Source: an uncultured Gammaproteobacteria bacterium (GTDB lineage: Bacteria > Patescibacteriota > Patescibacteriia > Patescibacteriales > GWC2-42-12). Taken from it: a stretch of DNA of 64,000 nt. This document shows, piece by piece, positions 7,996 to 37,224 of this stretch (the stretch's first letter is position 1; every line of letters starts with the position of its first letter). A program made the translations under genes and the position numbers. The stretch is from positions 12,201 to 76,200 of the forward strand of contig CAYSKV010000004.1 of the NCBI GenBank assembly GCA_964431805.1, written 5' to 3'. The notes under the pieces were generated by a model that was given only the letters and a program-made list of their open reading frames with translations, was not told where the DNA came from and did not search any database.

Positions 7996-8023
7996 AAAAC
8001 TTAAAATTATTTTTAGATAAAAA

Positions 8024-8051: not shown

Positions 8052-8080
8052 AAATTTAAATTTTCTAGGCTCGCCTTAAA

Positions 8081-8236: not shown

Positions 8237-8320
8237 GTTAAATTCAGAAAAAAGTATACTATAACATTTGAATTCTTATGAATTGCTTATTTGTTAAATT
8301 TATGTAAAAATAAGAGTATT

Positions 8321-8899: not shown

Positions 8900-8947
8900 A
8901 TCTTTAAAATTTTTTTAAGGATTTTTCTCTAAAGGGTTAAATATAAT

Positions 8948-9928: not shown

Positions 9929-9940
9929 ATATAATTAGTT

Positions 9941-11344
9941 ATGGAAAAATTTTTGCATATAATAAAACGATATATTCCCATTAAAATATTTAATGCTTTA
10001 CAACCAATTTATCATTGGTTGTTTTCTGCTTTAGCTTCGGCTTGGTATGGTTGGCCGTCAAATAAACTTATAGTTATAGGCATAACTGGCACAACCGGTA
10101 AAACTACCAGTGTTTATTTAATTTCTAAAATGCTAACTTCGGCTGGCTATAAAACTGGCTTTACTTCAACGGCTATGTTTAATGACGGCGACAAAGAGTG
10201 GTTGAATAATAAAAAAATGACCATGTCCGGCAGATTTTTTACCCAGAAAATGTTAAAAAAAATGGTAAAAAATAAATGCCAATATGCGATCGTGGAAACT
10301 ACTTCCCAAGGTATAGAGCAATATCGCCATAAATTTATAAATTATGATGTTGTAATTTTTACCGGTCTTTATCCAGAGCATATTGAGGCGCATGGCAGTT
10401 TCGAGAAGTATAAAGAAGCTAAAGCTAAATTGTTCGCGCATCTTAAAAAATGCAAAACAAAATATGCGGATGATAAAAAGAAAATAATAAAAACCGATAG
10501 CGGTTTAAAAAAAATTGAAGCTAACCGGGTGAAAAAAACCATTATCGCTAATGGCGATGACGCATATGCTAATTTCTTTTTGTCTTTTTGGGCTGAAGAA
10601 AAATTAATTTATACTAAAAATAATGGAATAAGCGATAAATTAAAGAGCGATAAAACTCATATTGTAAATTATGGCGATATTAAATCAAATCAGTCGGGTA
10701 TTAGCTTCAAGGCTGAAAAAACAGAAATAAAATTAAATTTATTAGGCGAATATAATGCGGCTAACGCTATGAATGCGGTTTGTTTAGGTTTAAGCCAAGA
10801 TATAAAATTAGAAAAAATAAGAATTGGTTTAGAAAAAATAAAAGGCGTTCCTGGTAGAATGGAAATAATTAAGAGTGCAGAGCCGGTTTTTACGGTTATA
10901 ATTGATTACGCTTTTGAACCAGAAGCTTTAAAAAAAATATATAGTACTATTTTAAATTTAGAACATAATAAAATAATTCATGTTTTAGGTTCAGCTGGCG
11001 GCGGGCGAGATATAGCTAGGCGGTCTAAACTCGGAGCTCTTTCTAGCATGACCGCTGATATAGTAATTGTAACCAATGAAGACCCTTACGATGATGATCC
11101 AAAATTAATTATTGATCAAGTTGCCATGGGCGCTAAAAATGGCGGCAAAGTTTTAGAAAAAGATTTATTTAAAATTGAAGATCGGCGAGAAGCTATTAAA
11201 AAAGCTCTAACTGAAGCTAGTGAAGGCGATATAGTTTTAATAACCGGTAAGGGTTGCGAGCAGGCGATTTGCGTAGCCGGAGGTGTAAAAATTCCGTGGG
11301 ACGATAGAAAAGTGGTAGAGGAGGAATTGAAAAAATTGAAATAA
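9941..11344 (+). CDS. Mur ligase family protein (MurE-like)
   Basis: ATP-binding P-loop GITGTTGKTTS, central-domain strings, and C-terminal domain (VLGSAGGGRD, TNEDPYDDDP). Substrate specificity cannot be read from the sequence. Confidence 0.75.
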   Translation: MEKFLHIIKRYIPIKIFNALQPIYHWLFSALASAWYGWPSNKLIVIGITGTTGKTTSVYLISKMLTSAGYKTGFTSTAMFNDGDKEWLNNKKMTMSGRFFTQKMLKKMVKNKCQYAIVETTSQGIEQYRHKFINYDVVIFTGLYPEHIEAHGSFEKYKEAKAKLFAHLKKCKTKYADDKKKIIKTDSGLKKIEANRVKKTIIANGDDAYANFFLSFWAEEKLIYTKNNGISDKLKSDKTHIVNYGDIKSNQSGISFKAEKTEIKLNLLGEYNAANAMNAVCLGLSQDIKLEKIRIGLEKIKGVPGRMEIIKSAEPVFTVIIDYAFEPEALKKIYSTILNLEHNKIIHVLGSAGGGRDIARRSKLGALSSMTADIVIVTNEDPYDDDPKLIIDQVAMGAKNGGKVLEKDLFKIEDRREAIKKALTEASEGDIVLITGKGCEQAICVAGGVKIPWDDRKVVEEELKKLK

Positions 11345-11553
11345 ATTTTTATGTTAAAAATAACATACTTCGTGCATGGCACAATAAAGGATAATAAAAA
11401 AGGCATTGCTGCGGACTGGAAATATCAGTGCTCTATTTGTGGATAACAATATCTATTGTTATGTAAAAATAATATTAAAATTATATATTATCGCTAATAT
11501 TAAATAAAATTAATTAATCTTCTGTATTTTTTGAAAATTTAAGCTAAAAACCC

Positions 11554-11582
11554 TTGACAAGCCCAATGATTGTTGTTAATAT
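11554..11582 (+). promoter_or_regulatory. Consensus sigma70-type promoter
   Basis: TTGACA (11554-11559), 17-nt spacer, TAATAT (11577-11582). Confidence 0.65.
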
Positions 11583-11588
11583 TTAAGA

Positions 11589-11731
11589 AGTTTTCAACAG
11601 GTAAAAAATTTGTAAATAAAATAGAATTCTTTCTGAGTCTCCGTTTTAACGGGGAAGGCAGAATAAAAATCCAAACGGCTCCGTAAAGACAGAACTCTAA
11701 CGGAAAGGAAATAGCATTGGCCGTTTTTTTG
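11589..11731 (+). ncRNA. Candidate small RNA bounded by a promoter and a terminator, upstream of rpoB
   Basis: Starts just after the 11554 promoter. AAACGGC (11673-11679) pairs with GCCGTTT (11720-11726), enclosing TCCGT (11680-11684) / ACGGA (11700-11704), then a T-run to 11730. No family recognised. Confidence 0.4.
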
Positions 11732-11822
11732 TTATCTTCGTTATTCATTTTTAAAATCCCCTTGCATATTTTTAAATCTTAAATAAGTGAAGACTTGTCT
11801 CATTAATTAAATATTTCGCGTT

Positions 11823-11857
11823 AACTCACAGCTATTAAAAACTGGTTGAGTTTTTTT
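11823..11857 (+). terminator. Terminator/attenuator-like hairpin immediately upstream of rpoB
   Basis: AACTCACAG (11823-11831) pairs with CTG..TGAGTT (11842-11852), followed by TTTTTTT (11851-11857), 31 nt before ATG 11888. Confidence 0.5.
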
Positions 11858-11887
11858 GTTTTTAAATAAATTTATTAAAAATATATT

Positions 11888-14800
11888 ATGACTACGAAAT
11901 TAAAAACTGATAGCCGAAGATTTTTTACCGAAACTAAAGCGGCTATTGATTTACCAGATTTAATTGAAATTCAAAAAGATTCTTATAATTGGTTTTTGCG
12001 CGAAGGACTAAAGGATCTATTTGAGGAAATTTCTCCGATAACTGATTTTATCGGTCGTAATCTTGAATTATCTTTAGAAGATTATTATTTAGACGAACCT
12101 AAATTTGATGAAAGCGAAAGTAAGGCTAAAAATATTACTTATGAAGCTTCTTTACGAGTTAAAGCGAAATTATCAAATAAAAAAACCGGCCAAAGCGTTA
12201 CTCAAGAAGTATTTTTAGGCGACTTTCCTTTAATGACTAAAAACGGCACTTTTATAGTTAACGGCATTGAAAGAGTTGTGGTCTCGCAGTTAATTAGAAG
12301 CGCCGGCGTTATCTTTACTTCAGAATTTATAAAAGGAAAAAAATATTACGGTGCTAAAGTTATACCTAACCGAGGCGCTTGGCTTGAAATTGAAACCGAC
12401 ATGAACGACGTAATCTGGGTTAGAATTGATAGAAAAAGAAAAGTTGCTATTACTTCTTTATTTAGAGCTTTTGGTTATTCAACCGATGAAGAAATAAAAC
12501 AATTATTTGCCGGTGAAGAAGAAATAACCTCAGGCATTGACGGTGAAAAGAGTTTGCTTGGTTTTATTGAAGCTACTATAGCTAAAGATGCGGCTAAAAA
12601 TGAAGCCGAAGGATTAAAAGAAGTATATAAAAGAATCAGGCCAGGCGATTTAGCCACAACTGATAATGCCAGACAATTAATTCACTCCATGTTTTTTAGA
12701 TTTGATCGCTATGATTTTGATCGCGTCGGCCGCTACAAGATGAATAAACGATTTAATCAGAATGTCGTCAATAATAAAGAAAATAGAGTTTTAAGAAGAG
12801 AAGATTTGGTCGCGATTGTTAAAGAAGTTGTCAGATTAAATATTACTCAAGAAAAAGAAGATGATATAGATCATTTAGGCAATCGCCGCGTTAGAGCGAT
12901 TGGCGAATTAATTCAAAATAAATTTAGAGTTGGTCTCGCCAGAATGGAAAGAATTGTTAGGGACAGAATGAGTATTATGGATATTGATAGTTTAACGCCG
13001 AATAAATTAATTAATGCTCGTCCGGTGATTAGCGTAGTTAAGGAATTTTTCATGTCTTCGCAATTATCGCAATTTATGGATCAGACAAATCCTTTAGCCG
13101 AACTTGAACATAAACGTAGATTATCAGCTATGGGCCCAGGCGGTTTAACTCGCGAACGCGCTGGTTTCGAAGTGCGCGATGTGCACACCACTCATTACAG
13201 TCGTATTTGTCCGATTGCCACGCCAGAAGGTCCAAATATTGGTTTGGTTGGCCATTTAGCTAGTTATGCCAGACTTAATAGTTATGGTTTTATTGAAGCG
13301 CCTTATCGCGTAGTTTTACATGACATAGAAAATGACCCGGCTAAAACTGTTAATAAAATTGCTCGTGAAGATATTTATGAAATTAAAGGCGATAAAAAAG
13401 GCAAATTGATTATTAAAGCCGGTCAGGTAATTGATAAGAAAGTTGCAGTTGAATTAAAAGAAAAAATGGGGCATGTTACTATTCCGATAGTACCTGTTTT
13501 AGGCGACGAGATTGTTTACCTTGATGCTTTTGAAGAAGAAAAATATATTTCCACGCCGGCGACCACCCCGGTTGATGCTAACGGATATTTTAAGGTTCAA
13601 AAAGCTGAAGCTCGTAAGTATGGTCAACCTTCGCTTGAACCAGTTGAAAAAATAGATTTAATTGGCGTAGCGCCGAATCAAATTGTTTCTGTGGCCACTT
13701 CTTTAATTCCATTTTTGGAACATGATGATGGTATCAGAGCTTTAATGGGAACTAACATGCAACGCCAAGCTGTACCATTAATAACGGCTGAAGCGCCTAT
13801 TGTCGGTACGGGCATGGAAGCTAGAGCCGCTACTGATTGCGGACATGTAATTTTAGCTCCTGACGACGGAGAAATTGTTAAAGTTGATGGCGGCACAATT
13901 GAGTTTAAAGATAAAAAAGGCAAAACGACTAAGTATGTTTTAAATAAATTTTTACGTTCTAATGCTTCAACCTGCATAAATCAACGTCCGATCGTTGATC
14001 GAGGAGATAAAGTAAAGAAAGGCGATGTTTTAACTAACAGCTCAGCCGTAGATAATGGCGAATTGTCGTTAGGACGAAATGTTTTTGTAGCTTTTATGAC
14101 CTGGGAAGGTTTTAACTATGAAGACGCGGTAATTATTTCTGAACGTTTAATTAAGGAAGATGTTTATTCTTCAATTCATATAGAAAATTATACGATTGAC
14201 GTACGCGATACTAAGCTCGGACCGGAATTAATAACTAACGACATTCCTAATATCAGCGAAGAAAAATTAAAAGATTTAGATGAACGCGGTATTGTTCGTA
14301 TCAGCGCCGAAGTTTCTTCAGGTGATATTTTAGTCGGTAAAATTACGCCGAAAGGTGAGACCGAATTATCGGCGGAAGAAAAATTATTGCGCGCGATTTT
14401 TGGTGAAAAAGCCAAAGATGTTAGAGATTCTTCATTATATTTAGAGCATGGTGAACACGGTAAAGTGGTTGATGTTAAAATATTCTCTAGAGAAGACGGC
14501 GATAAATTAGCGGCTGGAGTAATTCAATCAATTCAGGTAACCGTAGCTAACTTAAGAAAGATTCAAATTGGAGATAAAATGGCTGGCCGTCATGGTAACA
14601 AAGGTGTTATTTCTAAAGTTGTGCCAGTTGAAGACATGCCTTACTTAGCCGATGGTACGCCGATTGAAATAATTTTGTCGCCTTTAGGTGTTGTTTCAAG
14701 AATGAACTTGGGACAGATTTTAGAAACTCATTTAGGTTATGCCGCGAAAAAATTAAATTATAAAATAGCCGTACCTCCATTAAACGGCATTGCTGAAAAA

Positions 14801-19326: not shown

Positions 19327-19360
19327 ATTGTTATTTGTTCTTTTTTATATAAAACAAAAA

Positions 19361-19394
19361 AGGCATTACGGTGAAAACCATAATGCCTTTTTTG
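19361..19394. terminator. Bidirectional terminator between convergent rpoC and porB
   Basis: AGGCATTA (19361-19368) / TAATGCCT (19381-19388), flanked by an A-run upstream and a T-run downstream. Confidence 0.8.
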
Positions 19395-19403: not shown

Positions 19404-20309
19404 TTATTTCAAATTATATTTTTTTACATTTTCATCGGCCAGTTTTTGAATATAAGCGATTTGTTTTTTTCCTGAACCATTTTTAAATAGATGTTTAAAT
19501 CTGCCTTGCGGTTTTAAATAATTTTCAACTGGCGGACGCTGAGCTGGTACTTTTATTACTTCGCTAAGTTGACCATTTACATATTCGACTGCTGGATAAA
19601 TGCCAGTCTGTACGGCTAATTTAGCTAAATTTATAGTTTGGTTGGGTTCAATTTTCCAGCCTGGTATGCAAGGCACTAAAATTTGTAGATATGAAGGGCC
19701 CGGAGTGGCTATAGCCTTTTTAACTTTTTTAATTATATCTAATGGGTAAGCGACCGTAGTTTGCGCTACATATTTTAAGCCGTGCGCTAAAGCGATAGCT
19801 AGCATGTCTTTTTTTATAAAATGTGAACCAATACCGTTGATATCGGGTGAAGTTCCGGCCGGAGTAGTCGTAGTGTTAGCGGCCCAGGGAGTAGCTGCGC
19901 TAGCTTGTGCACCTGTGTTCATATAGCCTTCGTTATCGTAACAAACATAAAGAATATTTTCACCGCGTTCCCACATGCCGCTAATTAAGCCAAAACCGAT
20001 ATCAAAAGTGCCACCATCGCCGCCTTGGGCAACAACTTTAATTTTTTTGTCTTTACCTTGCGTTTTTAAGGCAGCTTGAATGCCCGAAGCAACGGCCGTG
20101 GCATTTTCAAATAAAGAATGAATCCAGGGCATGCCCCAACTTGATTCTGGGTAAGGCGTGGTGACAACTTCTAAACAACCGGTGGCGTTAGCGATAATAG
20201 TATCCGGGCCTAAACTGTCGGCCACTAATCGGGCCGCAATCATCTGGCCGCAACCAGCGCAACCGCGATGACCTGGAGAAAAAAGAGTTTTTCTTGTATT
20301 ATTTTTCAT
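19404..20309 (-). CDS. porB: Pyruvate (2-oxoacid):ferredoxin oxidoreductase beta subunit (TPP-binding)
   Basis: N-terminal GHRGCAGCG cysteine motif and TPP-binding GGDGGTFDIG. Confidence 0.9.
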   Translation of the reverse strand: MKNNTRKTLFSPGHRGCAGCGQMIAARLVADSLGPDTIIANATGCLEVVTTPYPESSWGMPWIHSLFENATAVASGIQAALKTQGKDKKIKVVAQGGDGGTFDIGFGLISGMWERGENILYVCYDNEGYMNTGAQASAATPWAANTTTTPAGTSPDINGIGSHFIKKDMLAIALAHGLKYVAQTTVAYPLDIIKKVKKAIATPGPSYLQILVPCIPGWKIEPNQTINLAKLAVQTGIYPAVEYVNGQLSEVIKVPAQRPPVENYLKPQGRFKHLFKNGSGKKQIAYIQKLADENVKKYNLK

Positions 20310-20321
20310 GTTTTTATAATT

Positions 20322-20534
20322 TTAATTGGCTTCAGCAATTTGTTTTTTAAAATTTTTAATTTCTTTTGCTTTATATATTTGACCAATAAATTTAGACGCA
20401 TTAAGTATTTCAATTAAAACAGGTTTTTTGGATTTTGATAAATGAATAATAAAATTACCAAGTTCAATCGCGTTTTTAATTGGATCTTTAGTAATTTCCC
20501 AGCTTATAATATTAGCTTCAATATCGTATTGCAT
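20322..20534 (-). CDS. DUF2283-like small protein (putative antitoxin partner)
   Basis: 70 aa. MQYDIEANIISWEI...PVLIEILNASKF matches my recollection of the DUF2283/YuzE pattern (YD.EAD..Y......GIEIL.AS). Confidence 0.5.
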   Translation of the reverse strand: MQYDIEANIISWEITKDPIKNAIELGNFIIHLSKSKKPVLIEILNASKFIGQIYKAKEIKNFKKQIAEAN

Positions 20535-20538
20535 AATT

Positions 20539-20754
20539 TTATTTAATAGGAAAAAAAGTTATAATTTTTATTATTTCAGCCTCTTTTTTATAAATAACTT
20601 TTATATTTTCTTTTTGCGCCGTCAAAAGTTTATCTTTTTTTCCGGCTTTGTCAGGCGCGCTAACCGTATCTTCAATTTGCTCGCGCGTAAAAAAGATTTT
20701 ATGTTTATTTAATAAATCAAATTTTTGTTCGGCGTATTTAGTAAAGTAAAACAT
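20539..20754 (-). CDS. DUF4258-like small protein (putative toxin partner)
   Basis: 71 aa. FTKYAEQKF...FTREQIEDTV...IKVIYKKEAEIIKIITFFP resembles the DUF4258 pattern. A 4-nt gap separates it from the DUF2283-like ORF. Confidence 0.45.
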   Translation of the reverse strand: MFYFTKYAEQKFDLLNKHKIFFTREQIEDTVSAPDKAGKKDKLLTAQKENIKVIYKKEAEIIKIITFFPIK

Positions 20755-20755
20755 A

Positions 20756-21190
20756 TTATTTGGGGAAAGCCGTGCTATTTGGGCAAAAACTTAAGCCGTA
20801 ATTAATATCTTGTAATTTAAACATATCAATAATTCCTCCCAATGGTCTTAGGTCAATAGTTAGTTTACAAGCATCTTCTTTTTTTATTTCTAAAATTTTA
20901 ATAAATTTTTTTTCTGCATTTTCGCGAGCTACTTGAATGTCAGGGCTACTAATAATGATAGAAAAACGATTAGTTTTTTTATCATACGTAAAAAAATAAT
21001 TCTGATTTTTATTATAGTAGAAAGTTCCATTGATATTTTCAAAATTTTTATTAGTTTCTGGGTCAACAATTTTAATAATACCAGAAGGGGATTCTAGATA
21101 AACCTTTTTACTTTGAAGAGAATAAAATATAATAATACTGATAAGTAAAATTATAATAAAGAATAGTATTAAAAAGTATTTTTTTTTCAT
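20756..21190 (-). CDS. Hypothetical membrane-anchored/exported protein
   Basis: ATG at 21190 (MKKKYFLILFFIIILLISIIIF) is preferred over the overlapping GTG at 21220. One N-terminal TM segment. No family recognised. Confidence 0.55.
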   Translation of the reverse strand: MKKKYFLILFFIIILLISIIIFYSLQSKKVYLESPSGIIKIVDPETNKNFENINGTFYYNKNQNYFFTYDKKTNRFSIIISSPDIQVARENAEKKFIKILEIKKEDACKLTIDLRPLGGIIDMFKLQDINYGLSFCPNSTAFPK

Positions 21191-21210
21191 ATTTTTAATT
21201 ATTAAATTTA

Positions 21211-22542
21211 TTATTTGCACTTATTATAGCTAGTTGTCCATGGATCCCATCTTCTTGCAGTATACAAATTACAAGCAAGCTTTATATTGTTCGCTGGCGT
21301 TAATAAATAATTTGAGCAAGTAGCGTAAAGACTAGAATCTTTTTTGTAGCAATTTCTTGCTTTGCATATAGTTGTTCCTGGCCAATATTCAAGACAACAT
21401 CCTATCGATGAATTACTATTTAAGCATGTTCTACCACTAGCATATGGATTACTTGCTGGTGTATTACCTGCGACAGCGATGCCGCCAGTGCCACCAGCTC
21501 CGCCGCACTCATTTGCACCCCCATGAGAATCAATCATGTTTATTTGCCACATACCCATTGAAAAAGCACTACCATCAGCGCATAAGTCAGTAGTGCTTGG
21601 TATGGATCTACCTTGGCTTTCCCTTTGACAGACGCAAGATGCTGTTGCTGCGTCTGCTGCCATACAGGTGCCGTTAAAATTTGCTTCTACACAGTTTCCT
21701 GTACCAGTAGCAATTTTTGAGCAGCAACAATGATAGACAACGTTGCCTGAGTCAGCGGTAGTTTGTGTTCCGCATTTACTTGTTTCAGTAGATATTATTT
21801 TATTTGTGTCGCCTCCGCATATAGTATCGCCTACGCCGCCCTCAGTGCCAATAGTATCTGGGATCCAAGTGCATGCGCCAGAAATAGCCGTTTCTATTTT
21901 TTTTACTTGAGTAATTTGCAGTGGGTTAAAAACAGTTAAGGCTGGGTTTATTTGATATAGAATTAAGTAAGAACATAAAGCAATAACCAAGCCGGTTAGA
22001 GAGGCGCCAACCCAGGATTTAGCTTCACCAATCATGGTTGCGCTACCGCCGGCCACAATCCACATTACGCCGCCGATCATTAAAACCACGGCTGCTAAAA
22101 TACCAACGATGCCGATTGCATATTGATATATTCCGGCAACATATTCGCCGATCCAATTTACAGAACAGACATTTTCACCTTTATCATTAGTTTTACAAGT
22201 ACTAGGAGAAAAAGTTAAATTAGGGATTGGTATTTGCAGTTTAGGCATGGTAGTATTTAGACCAGTAGCTTTAGGTGTTGTGGTTGGAGCTGCAGTGCAA
22301 GTTGTCGACGTATCACAGCAACATTCACAATTACTTGCGCTAGTACACATAACAGGTTTTTGGGGGTTACCAGGGCAATTGTCAAAACTACATGAAATTT
22401 GTCCATAATTACTACAATGTTTATCGCCCTGTATTACAGAATAATTGCAAGCCGCTTGAGCTATAGTTGGAAAATAAAAAAGACTAAATATTAAAAATAA
22501 TAATGGTAAATAGAATATAATTTTTGTTTTTTTGGATTTCAT
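21211..22542 (-). CDS. Cys-rich exported protein: TrbC/VirB2-like pilin hairpin fused to a C-terminal lysozyme-like domain
   Basis: Signal peptide ending AQA. Two-TM hairpin AIGIVGILAAVVLMIGGVMWIVAGG...AKSWVGASLTGLVIALCSYLIL. The C-terminal domain has CQRES (E308-S309) and SMGMWQIN (aa 328-335), like the catalytic Glu-Ser and GLMQ(IN) of SLT/lysozyme folds. Confidence 0.6.
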   Translation of the reverse strand: MKSKKTKIIFYLPLLFLIFSLFYFPTIAQAACNYSVIQGDKHCSNYGQISCSFDNCPGNPQKPVMCTSASNCECCCDTSTTCTAAPTTTPKATGLNTTMPKLQIPIPNLTFSPSTCKTNDKGENVCSVNWIGEYVAGIYQYAIGIVGILAAVVLMIGGVMWIVAGGSATMIGEAKSWVGASLTGLVIALCSYLILYQINPALTVFNPLQITQVKKIETAISGACTWIPDTIGTEGGVGDTICGGDTNKIISTETSKCGTQTTADSGNVVYHCCCSKIATGTGNCVEANFNGTCMAADAATASCVCQRESQGRSIPSTTDLCADGSAFSMGMWQINMIDSHGGANECGGAGGTGGIAVAGNTPASNPYASGRTCLNSNSSIGCCLEYWPGTTICKARNCYKKDSSLYATCSNYLLTPANNIKLACNLYTARRWDPWTTSYNKCK

Positions 22543-22552
22543 AACTTAATTT

Positions 22553-23446
22553 TTAAAAAGATGCACCTCCACTTGCTTTATAACAAGAATATAGCGTTGA
22601 TGAACATGGTCTTCCTCCAGAAATTAATGCAGGTTTAGGATTAAGAGTTTGAAGAGTTGTCGCAGAATAGCATTGACCTGAACCATCACCGCACCATTCA
22701 TTCTCATTAGCTTTTCCAAAGCAATTTCCAACGCCATCACACCATCCTGATCCACTATTACAACTGTCTCCAATTTTTGATCCCGCTGTACAAACACCAA
22801 TAGAACCTATTGCTGTAATATCCGTTGTGACCGTTTGTACTGTTGTAGTTTTAAAATTCACTAACGCCGGGTTTACTGTAGCTAAAATAAAGTAAGAGCA
22901 TAAAGCTAAAAGTAAACCGGTTAAAGAGGCGCCAATCCAAGATTTGGCTTCGCCGATAGCTGTAGCATTACCGCCAGCCACAATCCACATTACGCCGCCG
23001 ATCATTAAAACTACGGCTGCTAAAATACCGACGATGCCGATAGCGTATTTATAAATTGCTCTAATGTATTGACCTATCATGGTGGTTGAGCCGTCTGGAG
23101 TATATGCTTTTCCTTTCTGGAAATCAGTACCTATCCCGACTTGGGGAGTAAAAGAAGCTTTTTTCCCGTCAGTAGATGCTGCGGCCGTAGGTGCAGCAGT
23201 AGGAGTGGTTACGTTTTCACAACAACATTCACAGTTACTTGTATCAGTACACATTGTAGGCTTAGTTTGGCTAGCGCAACTAGAAAAATCACTTAAAGTT
23301 TGTCCATAGTCACTACAGTGTTTGCTAGCTTGTATTACAGAATAATTACAAGCCGCTTGTGTTATAATAGGGAAATAAAAAATATTAATTATAAATAACA
23401 ATATTAAGGGTAAATATAGTATAATTTTTATTTTTTTTGGATTCAT
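22553..23446 (-). CDS. Cys-rich exported TrbC/VirB2-like pilin-hairpin protein (paralog of 21211-22542)
   Basis: The signal peptide and first ~50 aa, and the two-TM hairpin (AIGIVGILAAVVLMIGGVMWIVAGG...AKSWIGASLTGLLLALCSYFIL), are nearly identical to the neighbour. The Cys/Gly-rich C-terminus is different. Confidence 0.65.
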   Translation of the reverse strand: MNPKKIKIILYLPLILLFIINIFYFPIITQAACNYSVIQASKHCSDYGQTLSDFSSCASQTKPTMCTDTSNCECCCENVTTPTAAPTAAASTDGKKASFTPQVGIGTDFQKGKAYTPDGSTTMIGQYIRAIYKYAIGIVGILAAVVLMIGGVMWIVAGGNATAIGEAKSWIGASLTGLLLALCSYFILATVNPALVNFKTTTVQTVTTDITAIGSIGVCTAGSKIGDSCNSGSGWCDGVGNCFGKANENEWCGDGSGQCYSATTLQTLNPKPALISGGRPCSSTLYSCYKASGGASF

Positions 23447-23458
23447 ATTATTATATTA

Positions 23459-24628
23459 TTATTTTCCAATAAATTGAGCTTTGTCGGATTTTTTATTGGC
23501 TTGTTTAATTATTTTTTTAATAATTTCTTTAGTAATATCGCGTCCACCTAAACCAACAACAAAACTAGCAATGTTGGCGTTAGTTTTTCCCTGGGCGAAA
23601 GCTTTAATTTCTGAAGCTAATATGCCCGTAGCTCCTAGCGAAATAGATTTATCTATAATCGCGATATTTTTAGCCGGTTTAATTATTTTTAAAATTTCAT
23701 CAGTTGGAAATGGTCTAAAACATTTAATTTTTAAAATGCCAATTTTATTTGATTTACCAATGGTTTCTTTAATAGTGCCGATAACCGAACCCATGGCCAC
23801 AACTATAGTATTAGGCTTTTTCGGACCAGAATATTCTATTAAACCATTATTTATAGATTTTTGATTTTTTAAATCAGGAAAAGTTTTGTTAAATTTTTTA
23901 TATTCTTGGTCTATAGTTTTTAAACTGGCGGTTAAATCTTCATGCAATTCCTGCCTGATTTCCATATAATAGGCTGGCGTGGCTAAGGCGCCTAAAGTCG
24001 TCGGATTAGCTGGGTCTAGGAATTGCCCTGATGCAGGTTTATAATTAGGTAAATATTTTTTTATTTGTTGCTCAGTTGGGATAATGACCGGTTCATAAGT
24101 ATGGGTCATAACAAAGCCGTCAACATTTATCATAACAGGCAATTTTAACTGCTCGGCGATTTTAAAAGCCATAATATGCTGATTAACCGCTTCTTGATGA
24201 TTTTCTGCGAACAGTAAAATCCAACCGGCATCTCTAACCGCCATTACATCTTGCTGATCATTCCAAATATTAATCGGCGCGCTTACCGCTCGATTAGCGC
24301 AAGTCATAACTATTGGTAATCTCATGCCAGCGATATTATAAATTACTTCGGCCATAAGAAGTAAGCCCTGTGAACTTGTAGCGCTATAAGCTCGTACGCC
24401 GGTAGCGCTAGCGCCTAAAACTATGGAAGCGGCTGCAAATTCTGATTCAGCGCGCACATATTCATAATCGGCTTGGCCGTCAGCTTTAAATTTGGCAAGA
24501 TCTTCAACAATATGAGTTTGGGGAGTAATTGGGTAAGCGGAAACGACGGCTGGACGGATATTTTTAACGGTTAAAGCAATTGCGCGAGAACCTTCTAAAA
24601 TTTGTTGTTTATTATTTTTATTTGTCAT
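23459..24628 (-). CDS. porA: Pyruvate:ferredoxin oxidoreductase alpha subunit
   Basis: 389 aa. GSRAIALTVKNIRPAVVSAYPITPQT, and the architecture typical of PorA/VorA alpha subunits. Confidence 0.9.
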   Translation of the reverse strand: MTNKNNKQQILEGSRAIALTVKNIRPAVVSAYPITPQTHIVEDLAKFKADGQADYEYVRAESEFAAASIVLGASATGVRAYSATSSQGLLLMAEVIYNIAGMRLPIVMTCANRAVSAPINIWNDQQDVMAVRDAGWILLFAENHQEAVNQHIMAFKIAEQLKLPVMINVDGFVMTHTYEPVIIPTEQQIKKYLPNYKPASGQFLDPANPTTLGALATPAYYMEIRQELHEDLTASLKTIDQEYKKFNKTFPDLKNQKSINNGLIEYSGPKKPNTIVVAMGSVIGTIKETIGKSNKIGILKIKCFRPFPTDEILKIIKPAKNIAIIDKSISLGATGILASEIKAFAQGKTNANIASFVVGLGGRDITKEIIKKIIKQANKKSDKAQFIGK

Positions 24629-24629
24629 A

Positions 24630-24920
24630 TTATTTTTCTTGTCTTTCCATTTTTATGGCTTTAAATGGGCACTCAACTGCGCATAAGCCACAACCCTTAC
24701 AATACAATAAATCACATTCAAAATATTTTTTACCGCTAGCGTTAGTTTTTTCGGTTTGATTAATTATGCCTTCAGGACAAATTCGTTGGCAAATGCCGCA
24801 AGCCGTGCATGCGTCATGTAAAAAATTTGGCCGGTTAGTGCGCCAGGCGCCGGTTTTATTTATTAATGTTGTGTTTGGTGAAACTGAAATATTATTTTTT
24901 ACCCCGTTAGATAGTCTCAT
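24630..24920 (-). CDS. porD: Pyruvate:ferredoxin oxidoreductase delta subunit (2x[4Fe-4S] ferredoxin)
   Basis: Two CxxCxxCxxxCP motifs: CTACGICQRICP and CKGCGLCAVECP. Confidence 0.9.
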   Translation of the reverse strand: MRLSNGVKNNISVSPNTTLINKTGAWRTNRPNFLHDACTACGICQRICPEGIINQTEKTNASGKKYFECDLLYCKGCGLCAVECPFKAIKMERQEK

Positions 24921-24961
24921 GTTTTTTAGTTATACCCCGTAAAATAATTATCTAACGGGGT
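24901..24961 (-). promoter_or_regulatory. 13-bp perfect inverted repeat enclosing the porD start codon (porG-porD junction)
   Basis: ACCCCGTTAGATA (24901-24913) is the exact reverse complement of TATCTAACGGGGT (24949-24961). A third partial copy, ACCCCGT, sits at 24934-24940. The porD ATG (24920-24918) lies inside. Confidence 0.6.
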
Positions 24962-25500
24962 GAATATTTGTATGCCTGTTCAATTGCTTTTATATTTTTT
25001 TCTATTAAATCATTATGGCCGGCAAATTTTTCTTCAATGGCTTGTTTTAAAGCAGCTAAACTTATTAAGCCAGTTGCTTTAGCAAAAGCGCCCAAAATAA
25101 CCGTATTAACAATATTTTTACCGATTATTTCTAAGGCGATTTTAGTGGCGTCAATCGTATAAATATTGGCTTGTGGCAGATTAATTTTTAAATCACGCTT
25201 AGCTTTAGACGTGTTAATAATGGCGATAGTTTTTTTGTCCGCGCCTTTAGTCATGTCAAAATTATCAAGCAGACTAGCGTCTTGAATAATTAAAATGTTT
25301 GGTTGATAAATTTGTTCTCTGGTTATTATTGGTTTATCGTCTATGCGGGCATAAGCTTCTACTGGAGCGCCGGTTCTTTCTACGCCGAAAGAGGGGAAAG
25401 CTTGCGCTTGCTCGCCGTTTTTAAAAGCGGCGATGGCGATTAGTTCAGCAGCCGTTACTACGCCTTGGCCGCCGCGGCCATGAATTCTAATTTGTATCAT
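24952..25500 (-). CDS. porG: Pyruvate:ferredoxin oxidoreductase gamma subunit
   Basis: MIQIRIHGRGGQGVVTAAELIA N-terminus, typical of PorG/PorC. Confidence 0.9.
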   Translation of the reverse strand: MIQIRIHGRGGQGVVTAAELIAIAAFKNGEQAQAFPSFGVERTGAPVEAYARIDDKPIITREQIYQPNILIIQDASLLDNFDMTKGADKKTIAIINTSKAKRDLKINLPQANIYTIDATKIALEIIGKNIVNTVILGAFAKATGLISLAALKQAIEEKFAGHNDLIEKNIKAIEQAYKYSPR

Positions 25501-26217: not shown

Positions 26218-26245
26218 ATTATAACATTTATTTATGAATAAACAA
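26218..26245 (-). promoter_or_regulatory. Promoter candidate for the dsbA-like/por operon
   Basis: On the minus strand: TTGTTT (26245-26240), 16-nt spacer, TG-extended TATAAT (26223-26218). Confidence 0.4.
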
Positions 26246-26371
26246 AATTTATATAAGTTAGAACAAGAATTAGAAAAACGGCAAAAAATCAAGGAAAAAC
26301 GGAAAAGAAAGCTCATGGTAGTAAGCGGCGGCTCGGTTAAGAAGCTACAAAGGATTATTATTGCAAAATAA
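26234..26371 (+). CDS. Possible 45-aa Lys/Arg-rich small protein
   Basis: ATG 26234 to TAA 26369-26371. MNKQNLYKLEQELEKRQKIKEKRKRKLMVVSGGSVKKLQRIIIAK. Below the ORF-track cutoff, no SD, no family recognised. Confidence 0.25.
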   Translation: MNKQNLYKLEQELEKRQKIKEKRKRKLMVVSGGSVKKLQRIIIAK

Positions 26372-28954: not shown

Positions 28955-31822
28955 ATGGAAAAATATAATCATAAAAAAATAGAAGATAAATGGCGGGAAA
29001 AATGGGAAAAAGAGAAATTATATAAAACCGGCGAAGATAAAGCCAAGCCCAAATTTTATATTTTGGATATGTTTCCTTATCCTTCGGGCGCTGGCCTTCA
29101 TGTTGGCCATCCCAAAGGTTATATTGCTACGGATATTTTTGCTCGCGCTAAAATGATGCAAGGGTACAACGTGCTTCATCCTATGGGTTGGGATGCTTTT
29201 GGTTTGCCGGCAGAAAATTATGCTATTCAAAATAAAATTCATCCAAGAGTTGCCACAGAAAAAAATGTAGAAACTTTTAAAAGTCAGTTAAAAAAATTAG
29301 GTTTTACTTATGATTGGGATCGAGAGATAAACACCACCGATCCGGGATTTTATAAATGGACACAATGGGCATTTATAAAAATGTTTGAGCGTGGCCTAGC
29401 TTATGAATCAAACGAGCCGGTTAATTGGTGTCCGAGCTGTAAAACGGTTTTATCTAACGAAGATTTAGAAAATGGCAAATGTGAACGCTGCGGTTCTGAG
29501 ATTGAAAGAAAGCCGATGCGACAATGGGTTTTAAAAATTACTGATTACGCCGAAAGAATGTTAAATGATTTAGAAAAATTGCCATATTGGGAAGAGTCAA
29601 TTAAAGAAATGCAAAAAAATTGGATCGGCCGATCAGAAGGCGCGGAAGTTGATTTTGAAATTAACGGCGAAAAAGTAACGGTGTTTACTACGCGACCGGA
29701 TACTTTGTTCGGCGCGACGTTTTTTGTTATGGCGCCTGAACATCCATTAGTTAAAAAAATAACTACTGCTGAACAAAAATCACAAGTAGAAAAATATATT
29801 AAAGAAGCAGCTAGCAAGTCCGACATGGAAAGAACGGAATTAGCTAAAGAAAAAACCGGTGTATTTACTGGAGCTTATGCGATTAATCCAGTTAATCAAG
29901 AAAAAATTCCGGTTTACATTGCTGATTATGTGATGATGGGATATGGCACGGGCGCAATTATGGCCGTGCCGGCGCACGATGAAAGAGATTGGGAGTTTGC
30001 CAAAAAATATGACATACCGATTAAACAAGTTGTGGCGCCATATTTTTCAATTAATGATGGTCCGGACGCCGTACGTTCTGATAAAAAAACCGTAAAACGA
30101 TATACCGCTTATTCTCTCGTAAAACATTGTAAAAAAGATGAATATTTATGTTTAGATTGGGAAAAATTTGGTTGGCATTCAGGAATTATCGGCGGCATTG
30201 ACGAAGGTGAAGATTCTATAGAATCAGCCAAGCGAGAAATTATTGAAGAAACTGGCTATAAAAATATTCGCTTAGTAAAAGATCTGGGCATGGAAACTCA
30301 TAATAATTTTTACGCTGCCCATAAAAATGAAAATCGTTATGCTTTTGGTCCGGCCTTTTTGTTTGAATTAATAGATGAAGAGCAAGAACCGACTAGCGAA
30401 GAGCATACGAAAAATCATAAGGCTGTTTGGGTTAAAAAAGAAGACATGTCGACATTTTTAAATTTAGCTAATTTTGTTTATTTTTGGAAAATTTTGCAAG
30501 GTCAGGAAAGTTTTTGTTTTGCTGATAATGGCGTCGCGACTAATTCAGGTTTTTTAAATGATTTAGAAACTAAAACTGCCAAAGAAAAAATTATTAAATG
30601 GCTAGAAGAAAAAAAATTAGGTAAACGAGCGATAAATTATAAAATAAAAGATTGGGTGTTTTCTAGACAAAGATATTGGGGCGAGCCGATTCCGATTGTG
30701 CATTGCGAAAAGTGCGGTAATGTAGCCGTACCGGAAAATGAGTTACCATTAAAATTGCCGGAAGTAAAAAATTATGAACCGACCGGAACTGGCGAGTCGC
30801 CGCTAGCTAATATAAAAGAATGGGTAAATACAAAATGTCCGAAATGCGGCGGACCGGCTAAAAGAGAAACTAATACTATGCCGCAATGGGCTGGGTCAAG
30901 CTGGTATTATTTAAGATATATTGATCCGCATAATGATAAAGCTTTAATTGAAAAGGGGAAAGATAAATATTGGTCGCCGGTTGATTTTTATGTAGGCGGC
31001 GCTGAGCATGCCACGCGCCATTTAATTTACGCGCGTTTCTGGCATAAATTTTTGTTTGATATTGGCGTGGTAAATTACGACGAACCATTTACTCGTTTAC
31101 AACATGTCGGTTTAATTTTAGCCGAAGACGGACGTAAAATGAGTAAGCGCTGGATGAATGTTATTAATCCGGACGAGGTCGTAGAAAAATACGGCGCTGA
31201 TGCTATGCGCGTTTATGAAATGTTTATGGGGCCATTTTCCCAACCTTGCGCTTGGAGCACTAACGGACTAATCGGCGCTAGAAGATTTTTAGAAAATGTT
31301 TATAAATTAAAAGATAAACAATTATATGATTGCCAAGCAGATAGTTATATAAAAGAATTAGGCATGCCGCAAATGATTCATAAAACTATAAAAAAAGTTA
31401 GCGAAGATATTGAAAATTTTCGTTATAATACAGCTATTGCCCAGATGATGATTTTTGTAAATTTTGCTGTTAAGTTTGATGAACTACCGCGCGAAGTTTT
31501 TGAGAATTTTTTAAAGCTTTTAGCTCCGTTTGCGCCGCATTTAGCTGAAGAATTATGGGCTGAAATTGGCAATAAAGAATCTATTTTTAAACAAGCCTGG
31601 CCAAAATATAATCCGGCCTTAGTTAAAGATGAAACTATAAATTTAGTTATTCAAATTAATGGGAAGATTCGTGATACTATCGAAGTTTCGGCTGATATTA
31701 GCGAAGAAGAAGCAAAAAAAATAGCTCTAGAAAGCGAAAAAGTTAAAAAATGGCTTGAAGGTAAAGAGACAATAAAAGTTATTTTTGTGAAAGGGAAATT
31801 AGTTAATATAGTTATTAAATAA
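28955..31822 (+). CDS. leuS: Leucine--tRNA ligase with an inserted NUDIX-hydrolase-like domain
   Basis: HIGH motif (HVGHPKGY), KMSKS motif (KMSKRW), editing-domain end [16 protein letters not shown]. At 955 aa it is about 100-150 aa longer than typical bacterial LeuRS. NUDIX box at aa 413-435. Confidence 0.95.
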
Positions 31823-34758: not shown

Positions 34759-37224
34759 ATGAATTTTACTATAATATTACCATTAATCAGCGCGATCTTA
34801 GCTATTAGCATAGGCATTTTTGTATTTAAGCAAAATAGAAAAAGTTTGATAAATCAAACTTTTTTTCTTTTTACTCTTGGTATAACGGAATGGTTTATTT
34901 GCACTTTCATGATGTTTTTATATAAAGATGATGTGGCGGGGGTAATTTTTTGGGATAGATTAGTCTATGCTGGTGTAGCATTTATGCCGGTTTTTACTTA
35001 TAAATTTTATTTAGCCTTAATTGGTAAAAAATCTGACAAAATTCTTTATGTCGGTTATTTATTATCAATAAGTTTTGCGATCCTTACACGTTCAAAATAT
35101 TTTATTGATGGTATTTATGTTTATAGCTGGGGCGTCCATACACAAGCTAGAATTCTGCACCATATATTTTTGGTGTATTTTGTAGTATTTATATTATTAT
35201 GGTTCTTCGCTACTTTAAAATTTTATAAAAGCCTTAAACCGTCATTAATTAAAGAACAAACTAAATATATATTTATATCTTTTGGCGTATTTTATTTAAT
35301 TGCGCCTCTCGGTTTTTTAGCGGCTTATAATGTAGGAGTTTATCCTGTAACATATTTTTCTGGATTAATTTTTACTATCATGATGGCTTATTGTATAGCG
35401 ATTTATCGCGTTATGGACATTAAATTAGTAATTAGAAAATCCTCCGTCTATCTCTTTTCCCTGGCCACAGTTTTAATTTTTATGACGACCGTTAAATTGA
35501 TTTCTGCTCAATTATTTACTGCTCCTCCAATTTGGATTGATTTATTGGTTCTATTAATTGCTGTTTATATTTTTTCGCCTATTAAGCATTATTACTATCG
35601 TTTAGCTAATAAATATTTCTTCTCCTCTTTGTATGATAGCCGCGAACTAATTGCTGATTTAAGCGATAAACTCCGCTCTACCATTGAAATCGGTAAAATC
35701 TATGAATATGTTTCAGAAATTTTAGTTAATGCTTTGCACGTGACCGCTTTTGGCGTTGTGTCTTTTGATGAAAAAAAACAAGTTTATATAACCCAGTATG
35801 GTCAAGGCTTAAACATCGGCCAACAAGAAATATTCCCAGGCAGTAAAGAAATATATAAAATTTTTACTAAAAGAAATCAGCCGATCATTGTTGAAGAAAT
35901 AAAATTTAGTAATTTTAAAATTAATAAGTCAATTTTAAATTTACTCACTAAAGCAAACGTCGCCCTGTTATCTCCTCTAAACATGAAAGATAAAACAGTC
36001 GGCATGATGGTATTTGGCCCTAAAGAATCCAAAGACCCTTTTAACGAAGAAGATTTAAAAGTTCTAGAAATTTTAGGCACGCAAATCGCTTTTGCCATGG
36101 AGAACGCTTTGCTCTACGCAGAATCGGTAAAATTTAATATCCAATTGAATGAAGAAAAAAATAAAATTGCGGCTATTATCGCTAACTTTATCGACCCGAT
36201 TATCTTTGTTGACCGCTATAATAATATTAACCTCATAAACCCGGCCGCTAAAAACATCCTCGGTTTAACAGAAAAAAGCTTGGGCGTAAGCATAGATACT
36301 AGCAATAATTGCCCGATGTCTAACTTCCGTACCGTCATCAAAAAAGAGTTTCAGATTAAAGAAATTGGCAATTTAAAATCAACTGATCATCATAGCGAAG
36401 AAATGTCTATTTTAGTTAATAACCAAGAATTAATTTATAAAATTACAACCATCAGGGTTTTTGATGATCAAACAAACCACCTAGGCCTCATGAAAATTTT
36501 CGTCAATCTCACCCGCGAAAAAGGCATTGATAAAATGAAATCAGAATTTATCTCTATCGCCGCCCATCAGCTAAGAACCCCATTATCAGCCATTAAATGG
36601 GTAATTAAGATGATATTAGACGGGGATGCTGGAGAACTTAATGTTGAGCAAAAAGATTTATTAAGGAAGGGCTATATTAGCAACGAAAGAATTATCAGAT
36701 TAGTTAATGATTTATTAAACGTTTCTCGTATTGAAGAAGGTAAGTTTGGATTTAATTTTGAAAAAACCGATTTTCAAGAAATTTTGACTACGACCAAAAG
36801 CAACTTAGAAGGTTTAATAGCAAAAAATCACCAAGAATTAATAGTGCAAAAACCAGAGAAACTACCTAAAGTATATCTGGACAAAGAAAGAATGGTTATG
36901 GTTTTGCAAAATTTACTTGATAATGCCATAAAATATACTCCAGAATATGGAAAAATAGAAATAATTGTTACTACCGACAAAAAATTTCTGCATGTTAAAG
37001 TTAAAGATCAAGGGGTAGGCATAAGCAAAAATGATCAAGCTAAATTATTTTCTAAATTTTTCCGAGCCTCTAATGCGCTTAAACTAGAAACCGAAGGCAG
37101 CGGATTAGGATTGTTTATAGTAAAAAATATTATTGAAAAACATAATGGTTCAATTGAATTAAAAAGCGAAGAAGGTCGAGGAACCGAAATAAGTTTTTCT
37201 TTGCCAATTGAGCAAAAACTTTAG
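34759..37224 (+). CDS. Sensor histidine kinase 1 (multi-TM sensor, GAF-like, PAS-like, HisKA, HATPase_c)
   Basis: H-box SIAAHQLRTPL, N-box LLDNAIKYTP, G-boxes DQGVGI and GSGLGL, and an N-terminal domain of about 7 TM segments. Confidence 0.9.
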   Translation: MNFTIILPLISAILAISIGIFVFKQNRKSLINQTFFLFTLGITEWFICTFMMFLYKDDVAGVIFWDRLVYAGVAFMPVFTYKFYLALIGKKSDKILYVGYLLSISFAILTRSKYFIDGIYVYSWGVHTQARILHHIFLVYFVVFILLWFFATLKFYKSLKPSLIKEQTKYIFISFGVFYLIAPLGFLAAYNVGVYPVTYFSGLIFTIMMAYCIAIYRVMDIKLVIRKSSVYLFSLATVLIFMTTVKLISAQLFTAPPIWIDLLVLLIAVYIFSPIKHYYYRLANKYFFSSLYDSRELIADLSDKLRSTIEIGKIYEYVSEILVNALHVTAFGVVSFDEKKQVYITQYGQGLNIGQQEIFPGSKEIYKIFTKRNQPIIVEEIKFSNFKINKSILNLLTKANVALLSPLNMKDKTVGMMVFGPKESKDPFNEEDLKVLEILGTQIAFAMENALLYAESVKFNIQLNEEKNKIAAIIANFIDPIIFVDRYNNINLINPAAKNILGLTEKSLGVSIDTSNNCPMSNFRTVIKKEFQIKEIGNLKSTDHHSEEMSILVNNQELIYKITTIRVFDDQTNHLGLMKIFVNLTREKGIDKMKSEFISIAAHQLRTPLSAIKWVIKMILDGDAGELNVEQKDLLRKGYISNERIIRLVNDLLNVSRIEEGKFGFNFEKTDFQEILTTTKSNLEGLIAKNHQELIVQKPEKLPKVYLDKERMVMVLQNLLDNAIKYTPEYGKIEIIVTTDKKFLHVKVKDQGVGISKNDQAKLFSKFFRASNALKLETEGSGLGLFIVKNIIEKHNGSIELKSEEGRGTEISFSLPIEQKL
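35438..36636 (+). repeat. Identical segment shared by the two kinase genes (copy 1)
   Basis: 35438-36582 is identical base for base to 37956-39100 (offset 2518; I compared every line). There are two mismatches at 36583 and 36585, then identity to 36636. Confidence 0.95.

Follow-up and report, generated by a model that had tools for sequence, protein, structure and literature searches.

The por locus and its gene content

The window analysed here is a 64,000-nucleotide (64-kb) stretch of contig CAYSKV010000004.1 (assembly GCA_964431805.1) from an uncultured member of the Patescibacteria, or candidate phyla radiation (CPR). It carries a minus-strand string of ten genes that includes all four subunit genes of a predicted pyruvate:ferredoxin oxidoreductase (PFOR) and is led by a gene for a DsbA-like protein. 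Within the string the genes of the alpha and beta subunits, porA and porB, lie 3152 nucleotides (nt) apart with five co-directional genes between them, two of which encode Cys-rich proteins with a VirB2-like pilin hairpin. A preliminary description, made from the letters and open reading frames (ORFs) of the window, had proposed this split; coordinates and strand were confirmed for all ten ORFs. The features, in the order in which the string is read, are the following (aa, amino acids; TM, transmembrane; JGI, Joint Genome Institute; TPP, thiamine diphosphate).

26218-26226, minus strand: candidate extended -10 promoter TGTTATAAT, 41 nt (3' end) to 49 nt (5' end) before the dsbA start codon
25509-26177, minus strand: dsbA-like gene, 222 aa, Thioredoxin_4
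24952-25500, minus strand: porG (PFOR gamma), 182 aa, PF01558
24630-24920, minus strand: porD (PFOR delta, 2x[4Fe-4S] ferredoxin-like), 96 aa, TIGR02179
23459-24628, minus strand: porA (PFOR alpha), 389 aa, POR_N and PFOR_II
22553-23446, minus strand: pil1 (VirB2-like T4SS_pilin, predicted Cys-rich membrane protein), 297 aa, 17 Cys
21211-22542, minus strand: pil2 (VirB2-like hairpin with a C-terminal lysozyme/SLT_3-like domain, predicted), 443 aa, 33 Cys
20756-21190, minus strand: tm144 (N-terminal TM anchor), 144 aa, ATG start as in the JGI assemblies
20539-20754, minus strand: s71 (predicted RelE/BECR fold, DUF4258-related), 71 aa, assigned by fold and transitive homology
20322-20534, minus strand: s70 (DUF2283 family, partner of s71), 70 aa, DUF2283 E 5e-4
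19404-20309, minus strand: porB (PFOR beta; TPP and [4Fe-4S]), 301 aa, TPP_enzyme_C
19355-19394, both directions possible: intrinsic terminator, 18-bp perfect stem, A/T runs on both sides

All four families of a four-subunit 2-oxoacid:ferredoxin oxidoreductase (OFOR) are present: gamma (PF01558), delta (2x[4Fe-4S]), alpha (POR_N and PFOR_II) and beta (TPP_enzyme_C). PorG matches PF01558 at E 4e-44 and NF006321 with 236.8 bits, above the cutoff of 225, and PorD matches TIGR02179 with 83.4 bits, above the cutoff of 60, and Fer4_7 at E 1e-10. PorA matches POR_N (E 1.6e-72) and PFOR_II (E 1.3e-21) as well as NF040682 (446 bits). The best NCBIfam models are those of PorA, PorB and PorC, with the PorA score (446 vs 550) and the PorB score (354 vs 405) under the equivalog cutoffs; specificity for pyruvate, over substrates such as 2-ketoisovalerate or oxalate, is on this basis putative. 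Adjacency of the alpha and beta genes, canonical in such operons, is absent from the window; it is a trait of operon layout and does not define the enzyme family.

The assignment of 19404-20309 as the beta subunit was tested by family match and found, through TPP_enzyme_C (E 1.1e-20), NF008819 (the PorB model, 354 bits) and an end-to-end alignment with the solved PFOR beta chain 9bt4_C (E 2e-98). In the residue-by-residue alignment with 9bt4_C, PorB keeps GHRGCAGC, TGCLEV, GGDG..DNE.YMNTG and PC..GW. The cluster residues, a CxxC and two more Cys, are intact, and so is the GDG...N thiamine-diphosphate motif. Decay of porB is ruled out by these cofactor motifs and by the full-length alignment, and porB is a bona fide, intact PFOR beta gene.

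The DsbA-like gene heads the string, as first described, and its product matches PF13462 (Thioredoxin_4; 95.8 bits, E 4e-27) and PF01323 (59 bits, E 7e-16). It has an N-terminal TM segment and a CxxC that reads C-T-N-C. From the thioredoxin fold, the CxxC and the anchor, the product is a putative membrane-anchored thiol:disulfide oxidoreductase.

Packing of the string and reality of the split

The successive gaps from porA to porB are 12, 10, 20, 1, 4 and 12 nt. The string had been described as having no gap above 12 nt. Tight packing holds, but the gap before tm144 is 20 nt with the ATG start (a 10-nt overlap with the GTG start chosen earlier), and the porG-porD gap, the longest of the whole string and outside the porA-porB interval, is 31 nt.

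Both junctions of the split are identical in five other assemblies, derived independently from three JGI samples and two Sequence Read Archive runs (L001-L006; related loci are cited by L numbers). Since independent assemblies from different samples share both junctions, a chimeric assembly is excluded and the alpha/beta split is real. A recent mobile insertion is likewise ruled out. Neither flanking repeats nor mobile-element genes (integrase, transposase) were found at the locus, no family reached its gathering threshold in an Rfam scan of the 64 kb, so that no tRNA was detected in that way, and orthologs of the locus occur throughout the clade. That the split is an artefact or a mobile or horizontal insertion peculiar to this genome could draw on the GC content, which varies along the string from about 0.22 (tm144) to about 0.45 (pilin genes). 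The shared junctions, the lack of terminal repeats, integrase, transposase or tRNA, the orthologous arrangements in more than 30 related genomes and a tree that points to a single ancient gain all speak against it, and in the light of these comparative data it is practically refuted.

The inserted pilin genes

The products of pil1 and pil2 each have a signal or TM segment and a two-helix TM hairpin, at residues 128-188 and 134-195, respectively. Their matches to T4SS_pilin (PF18895; cutoff 26.6 bits) reach 21.9 bits for pil1 (E 1.8e-4) and 21.7 bits for pil2 (E 2e-4). Among positional orthologs the family is matched by 21 of the 23 pil1 proteins (best 4e-9), none of which carries an enzymatic domain, and by 16/16 pil2 proteins (best 9e-8), which carry 3D, SLT_3, SLT, VanY or NlpC/P60 domains. 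Homologs of both belong to a large Patescibacteria family that bears the NCBI name 'pilin', and many of its members are C-terminally fused to peptidoglycan-acting domains (SLT, 3D, SLT_3, amidase, glucosaminidase, VanY or NlpC). The early view of two Cys-rich pilin-hairpin proteins agrees with the 17 and 33 Cys, the signal or TM segment and hairpin of each, and the T4SS_pilin matches of their orthologs.

Best-hit analysis separates the two genes. The positional pil1 orthologs are each other's best matches, and so are the pilins encoded after porB in relatives; pil2 of the window and its counterparts in L087, L089 and L090 match this second, post-porB lineage. By this analysis pil1 and pil2 are two orthologous pilin lineages. 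At the DNA level the 5' halves of the window pil1 and pil2 are 70-79% identical, in the following pairs.

22851-23078 (pil1) and 21926-22153 (pil2)
23273-23403 (pil1) and 22372-22502 (pil2)
23187-23263 (pil1) and 22283-22359 (pil2)

At its N terminus the window pil1 also has a Cys-rich module (...KP.MCT..SNCECCC) of a kind typical for pil2, and the pil1 orthologs of L087, L089 and L090 lack it, which suggests partial gene conversion from pil2 to pil1 in the lineage of the window.

The C-terminal part of pil2 matches SLT_3 at E 3e-3 (18.3 bits against a cutoff of 27), and its full-length homologs are annotated with PF18896. In an alignment of 20 sequences, E308-S309 is invariant and G-[LM]-[FW]-Q-I-N is conserved, which we take to be the signature of SLT-type lytic transglycosylases. 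The AlphaFold 2 (AF2) model of pil2 has a mean predicted local distance difference test (pLDDT) score of 59, a Foldseek search against the PDB gave only helical-hairpin matches at E>1 (the archaeal conjugation pilin 8dfu, at rank 18, is not significant), and a profile-versus-PDB search gave nothing significant. With a poor model and empty structure searches, the muralytic assignment stands on motifs and family context. On these, pil2 is predicted to be a VirB2-like pilin hairpin fused to a lysozyme-like muralytic domain. The inserted genes had been called in part a surface and cell-wall-degrading module, and this is supported by the VirB2-like hairpins, the Glu-Ser and GxxQIN motifs of pil2, its PF18896 homologs and the SLT, 3D, VanY and NlpC/P60 domains of its orthologs.

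No components of a type IV secretion system (T4SS), such as VirB4 or VirB6, were found among the ORFs of the window that were inspected or scanned. Two further surface proteins of the window start with the same VirB2-like hairpin. One (53912-55642, plus strand, 576 aa) matches T4SS_pilin above cutoff (33.5 bits), with Big_5 Ig-like domains following the hairpin, and the other (55759-61170, plus strand, 1803 aa) has long Cys-rich regions after it. In this genome the VirB2-like hairpin seems to serve surface proteins generally as a membrane anchor; the large C-terminal domains of the pilin-like proteins, together with the 576- and 1803-aa proteins, point to such an anchoring role.

The pil1 orthologs share a conserved TM hairpin. 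Their C-terminal Cys-rich region, by prediction extracytoplasmic, is hypervariable, and neither a CxxC nor any Cys of the TM helices is conserved in their alignment. The pilins of the clade carry 12-40 Cys outside the membrane hairpin. Being exported and Cys-rich, the inserted proteins are plausible clients of the DsbA-like oxidase. A closer coupling could also be imagined, in which the pilins would tether PFOR to the membrane, or Cys residues would form a relay between PFOR or ferredoxin and the extracytoplasmic DsbA-like protein. All that speaks for such a direct biochemical link is that the genes of a redox enzyme, of a protein with a thioredoxin fold and of Cys-rich membrane proteins are conserved neighbours, and the link is highly improbable. 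The redox-relay and PFOR-anchor idea was rejected on the lack of a conserved CxxC or TM cysteine in pil1. Moreover, the only strongly conserved part of the pil1 orthologs is the generic hairpin, common to unrelated surface proteins in the window, the Cys-rich parts vary freely outside the cytoplasm by prediction, and a sister clade has dsbA-porGDAB with no pilin at all.

The small genes before porB

The first of the small genes, tm144, has no significant Pfam or NCBIfam match. A TM segment begins at residue 1, in keeping with the membrane-anchored protein first described within the insert. A 143-aa gene occupies the same position in L091 only, and tm144 appears to be a sporadic addition.

The next two had been described as a DUF4258-like/DUF2283-like pair. 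For s70 this holds: it matches DUF2283 at E 5e-4, below the Pfam cutoff, and 6/6 orthologs match (best 1.2e-5). For s71 the direct Pfam test for DUF4258 is negative, as it is for five positional orthologs, and none of 110 homologs carries a precomputed Pfam domain; support is limited to fold and transitive homology. The AF2 model of s71 (pLDDT 94.9) finds among its top 30 Foldseek matches in the PDB exclusively RelE/YoeB/YafQ/ParE toxins (probability 0.94-1.0, E 6e-3 to 5e-2). An exhaustive profile search leads to remote relatives of about 80-90 aa; of 26 that were sampled, 9 match DUF4258, with matches to PBECR2, PBECR3 or BrnT among the rest. Tyr7 of s71 is invariant, at a position where the consensus of the wider family is His.

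A patchy, mobile distribution like that of toxin-antitoxin genes is not seen for this pair, since the position of s71/s70 by porB is fixed in every locus examined. The s70 gene lies immediately upstream of porB wherever it occurs among these loci, and s71 adjoins s70 and porB in each of the roughly 12 loci whose context was examined, among them those of its three most distant members and a locus with another downstream flank. The mean column identity of the s71 family is 72%, against 73% for PorA. The s71/s70 pair appears to behave as a fixed operon component, unlike a roaming toxin-antitoxin cassette.

The two genes are adjacent in the window, and a bAvd-like gene lies between them in L089, L093, L009 and L010. 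Small four-helix-bundle genes of this kind (23S_rRNA_IVP/bAvd-like) are found in the por strings of some relatives at one of two places, in the s71-s70 gap or just behind porA. Proteins of the bAvd-like type also serve diversity-generating retroelements as accessory factors. The inserts are as follows, and from them the por string seems to accrete small genes.

L089:11404-11781, bAvd-like, Pfam-confirmed
L093:9278-9652, bAvd-like, Pfam-confirmed
L009:3043-3432, bAvd-like, Pfam-confirmed
L009:4500-4877, ORF at the same position as bAvd-like inserts, known by position alone
L010:12344-12595, ORF at the same position as bAvd-like inserts, known by position alone

Distribution and history of the split

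A scan by PorA alignment, with one genome per species, gave 80 loci, of which 29 are from Patescibacteria (27 informative) and 50 are non-CPR loci with porB (Omnitrophota, Planctomycetota, Desulfobacterota, Zixibacteria, methanogens and others). Alpha-beta adjacency had been named as the rule elsewhere, and in 49/50 non-CPR loci porB starts at most 202 nt after porA. The exception is L065, from Altiarchaeota, where porB looks frameshifted. In L047 (Omnitrophota) the porB match falls in two pieces about 1.6 kb apart (10107-10481 and 12066-12677), possibly through an insertion inside porB.

The CPR loci differ from this rule. A Cys-rich pilin-like gene directly follows porA in 23 of the 27 informative loci, and porB starts 862-2516 nt after porA in all 16/16 pilin-bearing loci with porB on the contig; 11 of those 16 have a second pilin-like gene after porB. 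In three CPR genomes, L028-L030, porB directly adjoins porA. The order seen in the window recurs in eight further relatives (69-97% PorA identity). Comparison of porGDAB synteny across relatives thus upheld the split as real and conserved, but not as a peculiarity of one genome.

In a neighbour-joining tree of PorA and PorB (200 bootstraps), the insertion-bearing genomes are monophyletic (200/200) and the adjacent-gene genomes L028-L030 form their sister clade (200/200), so that a single ancient gain is parsimonious. The split has been inherited since the origin of this clade of tiny, symbiotic, Falkowbacteria-like Patescibacteria. The ancestral order of the split clade was probably dsbA-porG-porD-porA-pil1-porB-pil2. 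The subclade of the window (86% bootstrap) has the order porA-pil1-(pil2)-(tm~144)-s71-(bAvd-like)-s70-porB, with a convergent rpoC as downstream neighbour. The insert had at first been pictured as a five-gene cassette dropped into the operon, which the comparison does not sustain: pil1 is an ancient one-gene insertion fixed across the clade, pil2 probably once stood downstream of porB, and the five genes of the window would be a lineage-specific elaboration.

In nearly all CPR loci the gene next upstream of porG is dsbA, and this extends to genomes of the sister clade, where the pilin insertion is absent. As L029 and L030, of the sister clade, have dsbA-porGDAB and no pilins, the dsbA-por linkage is older than the pilins, and dsbA was not recruited for them.

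A few loci depart from these orders. In L033 (about 7000-14742) and L025 (5827-9444) an inversion puts dsbA and porG, and in L025 also porD, on the opposite strand, and an exonuclease-III-like gene now precedes porA; porA-pil1-porB-pil2 is intact in L033 despite the inversion, and the L025 contig ends just past porA. In L020 (9998-16754; PorA 63% identical), dsbA-porG-porD-porA is followed after 9 nt by genes for glycogen synthase, a GH57 enzyme and others. No pilin gene and no porB lies within 10 kb there, which makes it a different loss of alpha-beta adjacency.

Transcription signals

The terminator at 19355-19394 (inverted repeat I6; -24.2 kcal/mol, with a U-run) is the only strong hairpin with a U-tract in the 7-kb string. 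It can presumably act bidirectionally, shared with the convergent rpoC. Gaps free of terminator hairpins had been part of the initial account, and the hairpin scan agreed, with no terminator-like hairpin in any gap of the string, including that before porB. None of the ten start codons has a Shine-Dalgarno-like motif in the roughly 15 nt before it.

The sequence TGTTATAAT before dsbA is essentially invariant in 8 relatives though the flanks have diverged, and only the spacer base after TG varies. No other minus-strand TGnTATAAT occurs from 26226 to 19404. The motif has 11 copies in the window, 7 of which precede the start of a co-directional gene by at most 60 nt. Of 21 related loci, 18 have it 38-74 nt before dsbA, and in L089 it stands farther upstream; inside the strings of those 21 loci it occurs only five times. 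Internal copies in relatives include one before porA in L089, one before porB in L091 and one inside pil1 in L015. A scan for sigma-70 hexamer pairs found 33 against 27.6 expected in shuffled sequence; uninformative in AT-rich DNA, it was replaced by the conserved TGnTATAAT. Divergent from dsbA, and sharing with it the promoter region of 56 nt, is a 45-aa basic ORF (26234-26371, plus strand), and a gene of 44-46 aa is called at the same site in L002, L005, L087, L089, L095 and L096.

In L091 the s70-porB gap (L091:11159) is widened to 123 nt and holds a new TGnTATAAT 81 nt upstream of porB. This motif could be a compensatory internal promoter, and a wide gap together with a new motif fits a porB that elsewhere relies on upstream transcription.

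The pilin and small genes could instead be insulated, with promoters of their own and separate re-initiation before porB, so that the interleaving would have no regulatory meaning. Promoter-like hexamer pairs are common, yet not above the shuffled expectation, and the internal motifs of L089, L091 and L015 and the wide gaps of some relatives point in the same direction. Set against these are the window itself, with gaps of at most 20 nt in the interval and 31 nt in the string, no terminator ahead of porB and no coding-strand TGnTATAAT inside the string, while most copies elsewhere in the window closely precede gene starts, and the stop/start overlaps that are common in relatives (4-nt overlaps at porA/pil1 and porB/pil2 in many genomes). 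Such insulation is improbable. The signals fit a single dsbA-to-porB transcript in the window, short of proof, and co-transcription of the string is the probable consequence. As for the transcriptional coupling put forward at the outset, it is a prediction that the promoter, terminator and gap signals support well at the level of sequence.

Interpretation as a probable composite operon

The region is probably one composite, vertically inherited operon, in which surface genes were recruited into a DsbA-led, constitutive housekeeping operon. An ancestor would have had dsbA-porG-porD-porA-porB. At the base of the clade, the Cys-rich, VirB2-like pil1 would have been fixed between porA and porB, and pil2, fused to interchangeable peptidoglycan-hydrolase domains, after porB. 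In the subclade of the window pil2 would then have been placed ahead of porB, the RelE-fold (DUF4258-related)/DUF2283 pair fixed directly upstream of porB, and small genes (tm144, bAvd-like) gained and lost. The whole string would be transcribed from the one extended -10 promoter before dsbA and end at the terminator after porB. All four PFOR subunits would still come from one mRNA, and the enzyme would assemble normally despite the split. The surface genes would exploit a constitutive housekeeping promoter and be expressed along with the DsbA-like oxidase, which the pilins, with so many cysteines outside the cytoplasm, would require. Tightly packed genes under a single promoter are hard to separate again, which may be why the arrangement has lasted. 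This account implies no biochemical contact of PFOR with the pilins, as far as can be inferred.

Several points weigh against the recruited-operon account. An AT-rich genome could hold weak promoters that do not resemble TGnTATAAT, and gaps of 100-290 nt occur at porA/pil1 or before porB in L009, L011, L014 and L091-L093. The bases of the DsbA-client idea are Cys counts and topology, and the denial of a biochemical link is an argument from absence. Finally, the flanking genes are likewise syntenic across the clade, and the block may persist by inertia, without selection. Because the flanks are syntenic too, block conservation was rejected as sufficient proof of selection or of functional coupling.

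This last point also bears on a stronger proposal, that the fermentative enzyme and a surface apparatus for host contact and cell-wall attack are kept by selection as one regulon, with s71/s70 providing post-transcriptional control or an addiction lock. The survival of porA-pil1-porB-pil2 through the inversion that detached dsbA-porG-porD in L033 favours it, as does the fact that pil2 and porB both remained in the string when their order changed. The common translational-coupling overlaps, the constant place of s71 next to s70 and porB out to the most distant members, and its PorA-like conservation, unusual for a roaming toxin-antitoxin pair, point the same way. However, the rearrangements are too few to carry statistical power, synteny is strong in the background as well, the L020 site has lost both porB and the pilins with no obvious replacement within 10 kb, and Tyr in place of the family His makes nuclease activity of s71 uncertain. 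Selected co-regulation is on balance a tentative and rather unlikely explanation. Its fullest form, a single-promoter regulon under selection that joins PFOR, the DsbA-like oxidase, the surface pilins with their muralytic fusion and a domesticated RelE-fold/DUF2283 pair, the pair, found only next to porB, tuning or locking the distal transcript (porB versus the pilins), is a doubtful possibility that we hold to be unlikely. If it were true, energy metabolism and host-attack surface display would be obligatorily co-expressed.

Relation to known systems

Four-subunit PFOR operons (porCDAB/porGDAB of Pyrococcus, Thermotoga, Helicobacter and methanogens) are textbook knowledge. The window shares with them the subunit families, the gamma-delta-alpha-beta order and a PorB that aligns over its full length with 9bt4_C. 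Unlike them, it has a distance of 3.15 kb, filled by five genes, between alpha and beta (0.86-2.5 kb in the wider clade) and a dsbA-like gene in the lead. DsbA-type oxidoreductases are needed for pilin biogenesis in other bacteria, such as TcpG/DsbA for the TCP pilus of Vibrio and BdbD for ComGC of Bacillus. The likeness here, known from genes alone, is a membrane-anchored thioredoxin-fold CxxC protein encoded together with exported, Cys-containing pilin-like proteins; the difference is that the dsbA-por linkage is older than the pilins (L029, L030).

Arrays of VirB2-like (PF18895 T4SS_pilin) pilin genes have been described in Patescibacteria (bioRxiv 10.1101/2025.01.22.634366 / PMC12102498), and pil1 and pil2 are of the same protein family. 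In contrast to those arrays, the interrupting and flanking genes here encode subunits of a central-metabolism enzyme, the locus is one fixed site clade-wide, and the window has no VirB4 or other T4SS gene nearby; por genes are not mentioned in PMC12102498. DUF4258 is listed as a BECR-fold toxin family of the RelE/ParE superfamily, its activity untested (PMC11980606). Like such type II toxin-antitoxin modules, s71 has a RelE-like predicted fold, relatives in DUF4258, PBECR and BrnT and a small DUF2283 partner gene. It differs from them in having no direct Pfam match, a fixed position, vertical inheritance, PorA-level conservation and Tyr for the family-consensus His, and in the bAvd-like gene that separates the partners in some genomes.

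The literature searched holds nothing on pilin genes interleaved with por genes, nor on a linkage of DsbA with pilins or a dsbA-por-pilin string in CPR; within it, the opinion that the arrangement is undescribed was borne out. It appears to be an interrupted por operon and an interrupted pilin array at once, conserved across the clade. The result is a robust one of comparative genomics and a fact of gene order, any functional consequence of which is a proposal.

Other genes of the window

Outside the por string, a 955-aa leucyl-tRNA synthetase (28955-31822, plus strand) has an inserted Nudix-box-like segment. Its orthologs of 952-964 aa in L089, L091 and L092 have PF00293 NUDIX annotated inside, and 800-aa orthologs in L087 and L090 are without the segment. 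Two tandem paralogous 7TM-GAF-PAS histidine kinases of 821 and 830 aa (34759-37224 and 37256-39748, plus strand) are followed by a protein (39788-40603, plus strand) that matches the receiver domain twice and in which no output domain was recognised.

Significance

The alpha and beta genes of OFORs are adjacent almost universally, and the locus is a clear exception that defines its clade; the arrangement is usable as a synteny marker for the lineage. It indicates that a multi-subunit core enzyme tolerates genes of unrelated, predicted exported proteins among its subunit genes over long evolutionary time. It also provides a conserved, probably highly expressed CPR locus of candidate host-interaction factors, namely VirB2-like surface proteins and fusions of pilin and muralytic domains, and points to a possible relationship between DsbA and clients and to a RelE-fold/DUF2283 pair that appears to behave as a fixed operon component rather than as a mobile toxin-antitoxin system. 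If co-regulation is true, fermentation would be linked to host contact in organisms for which growth on their own is not yet possible.

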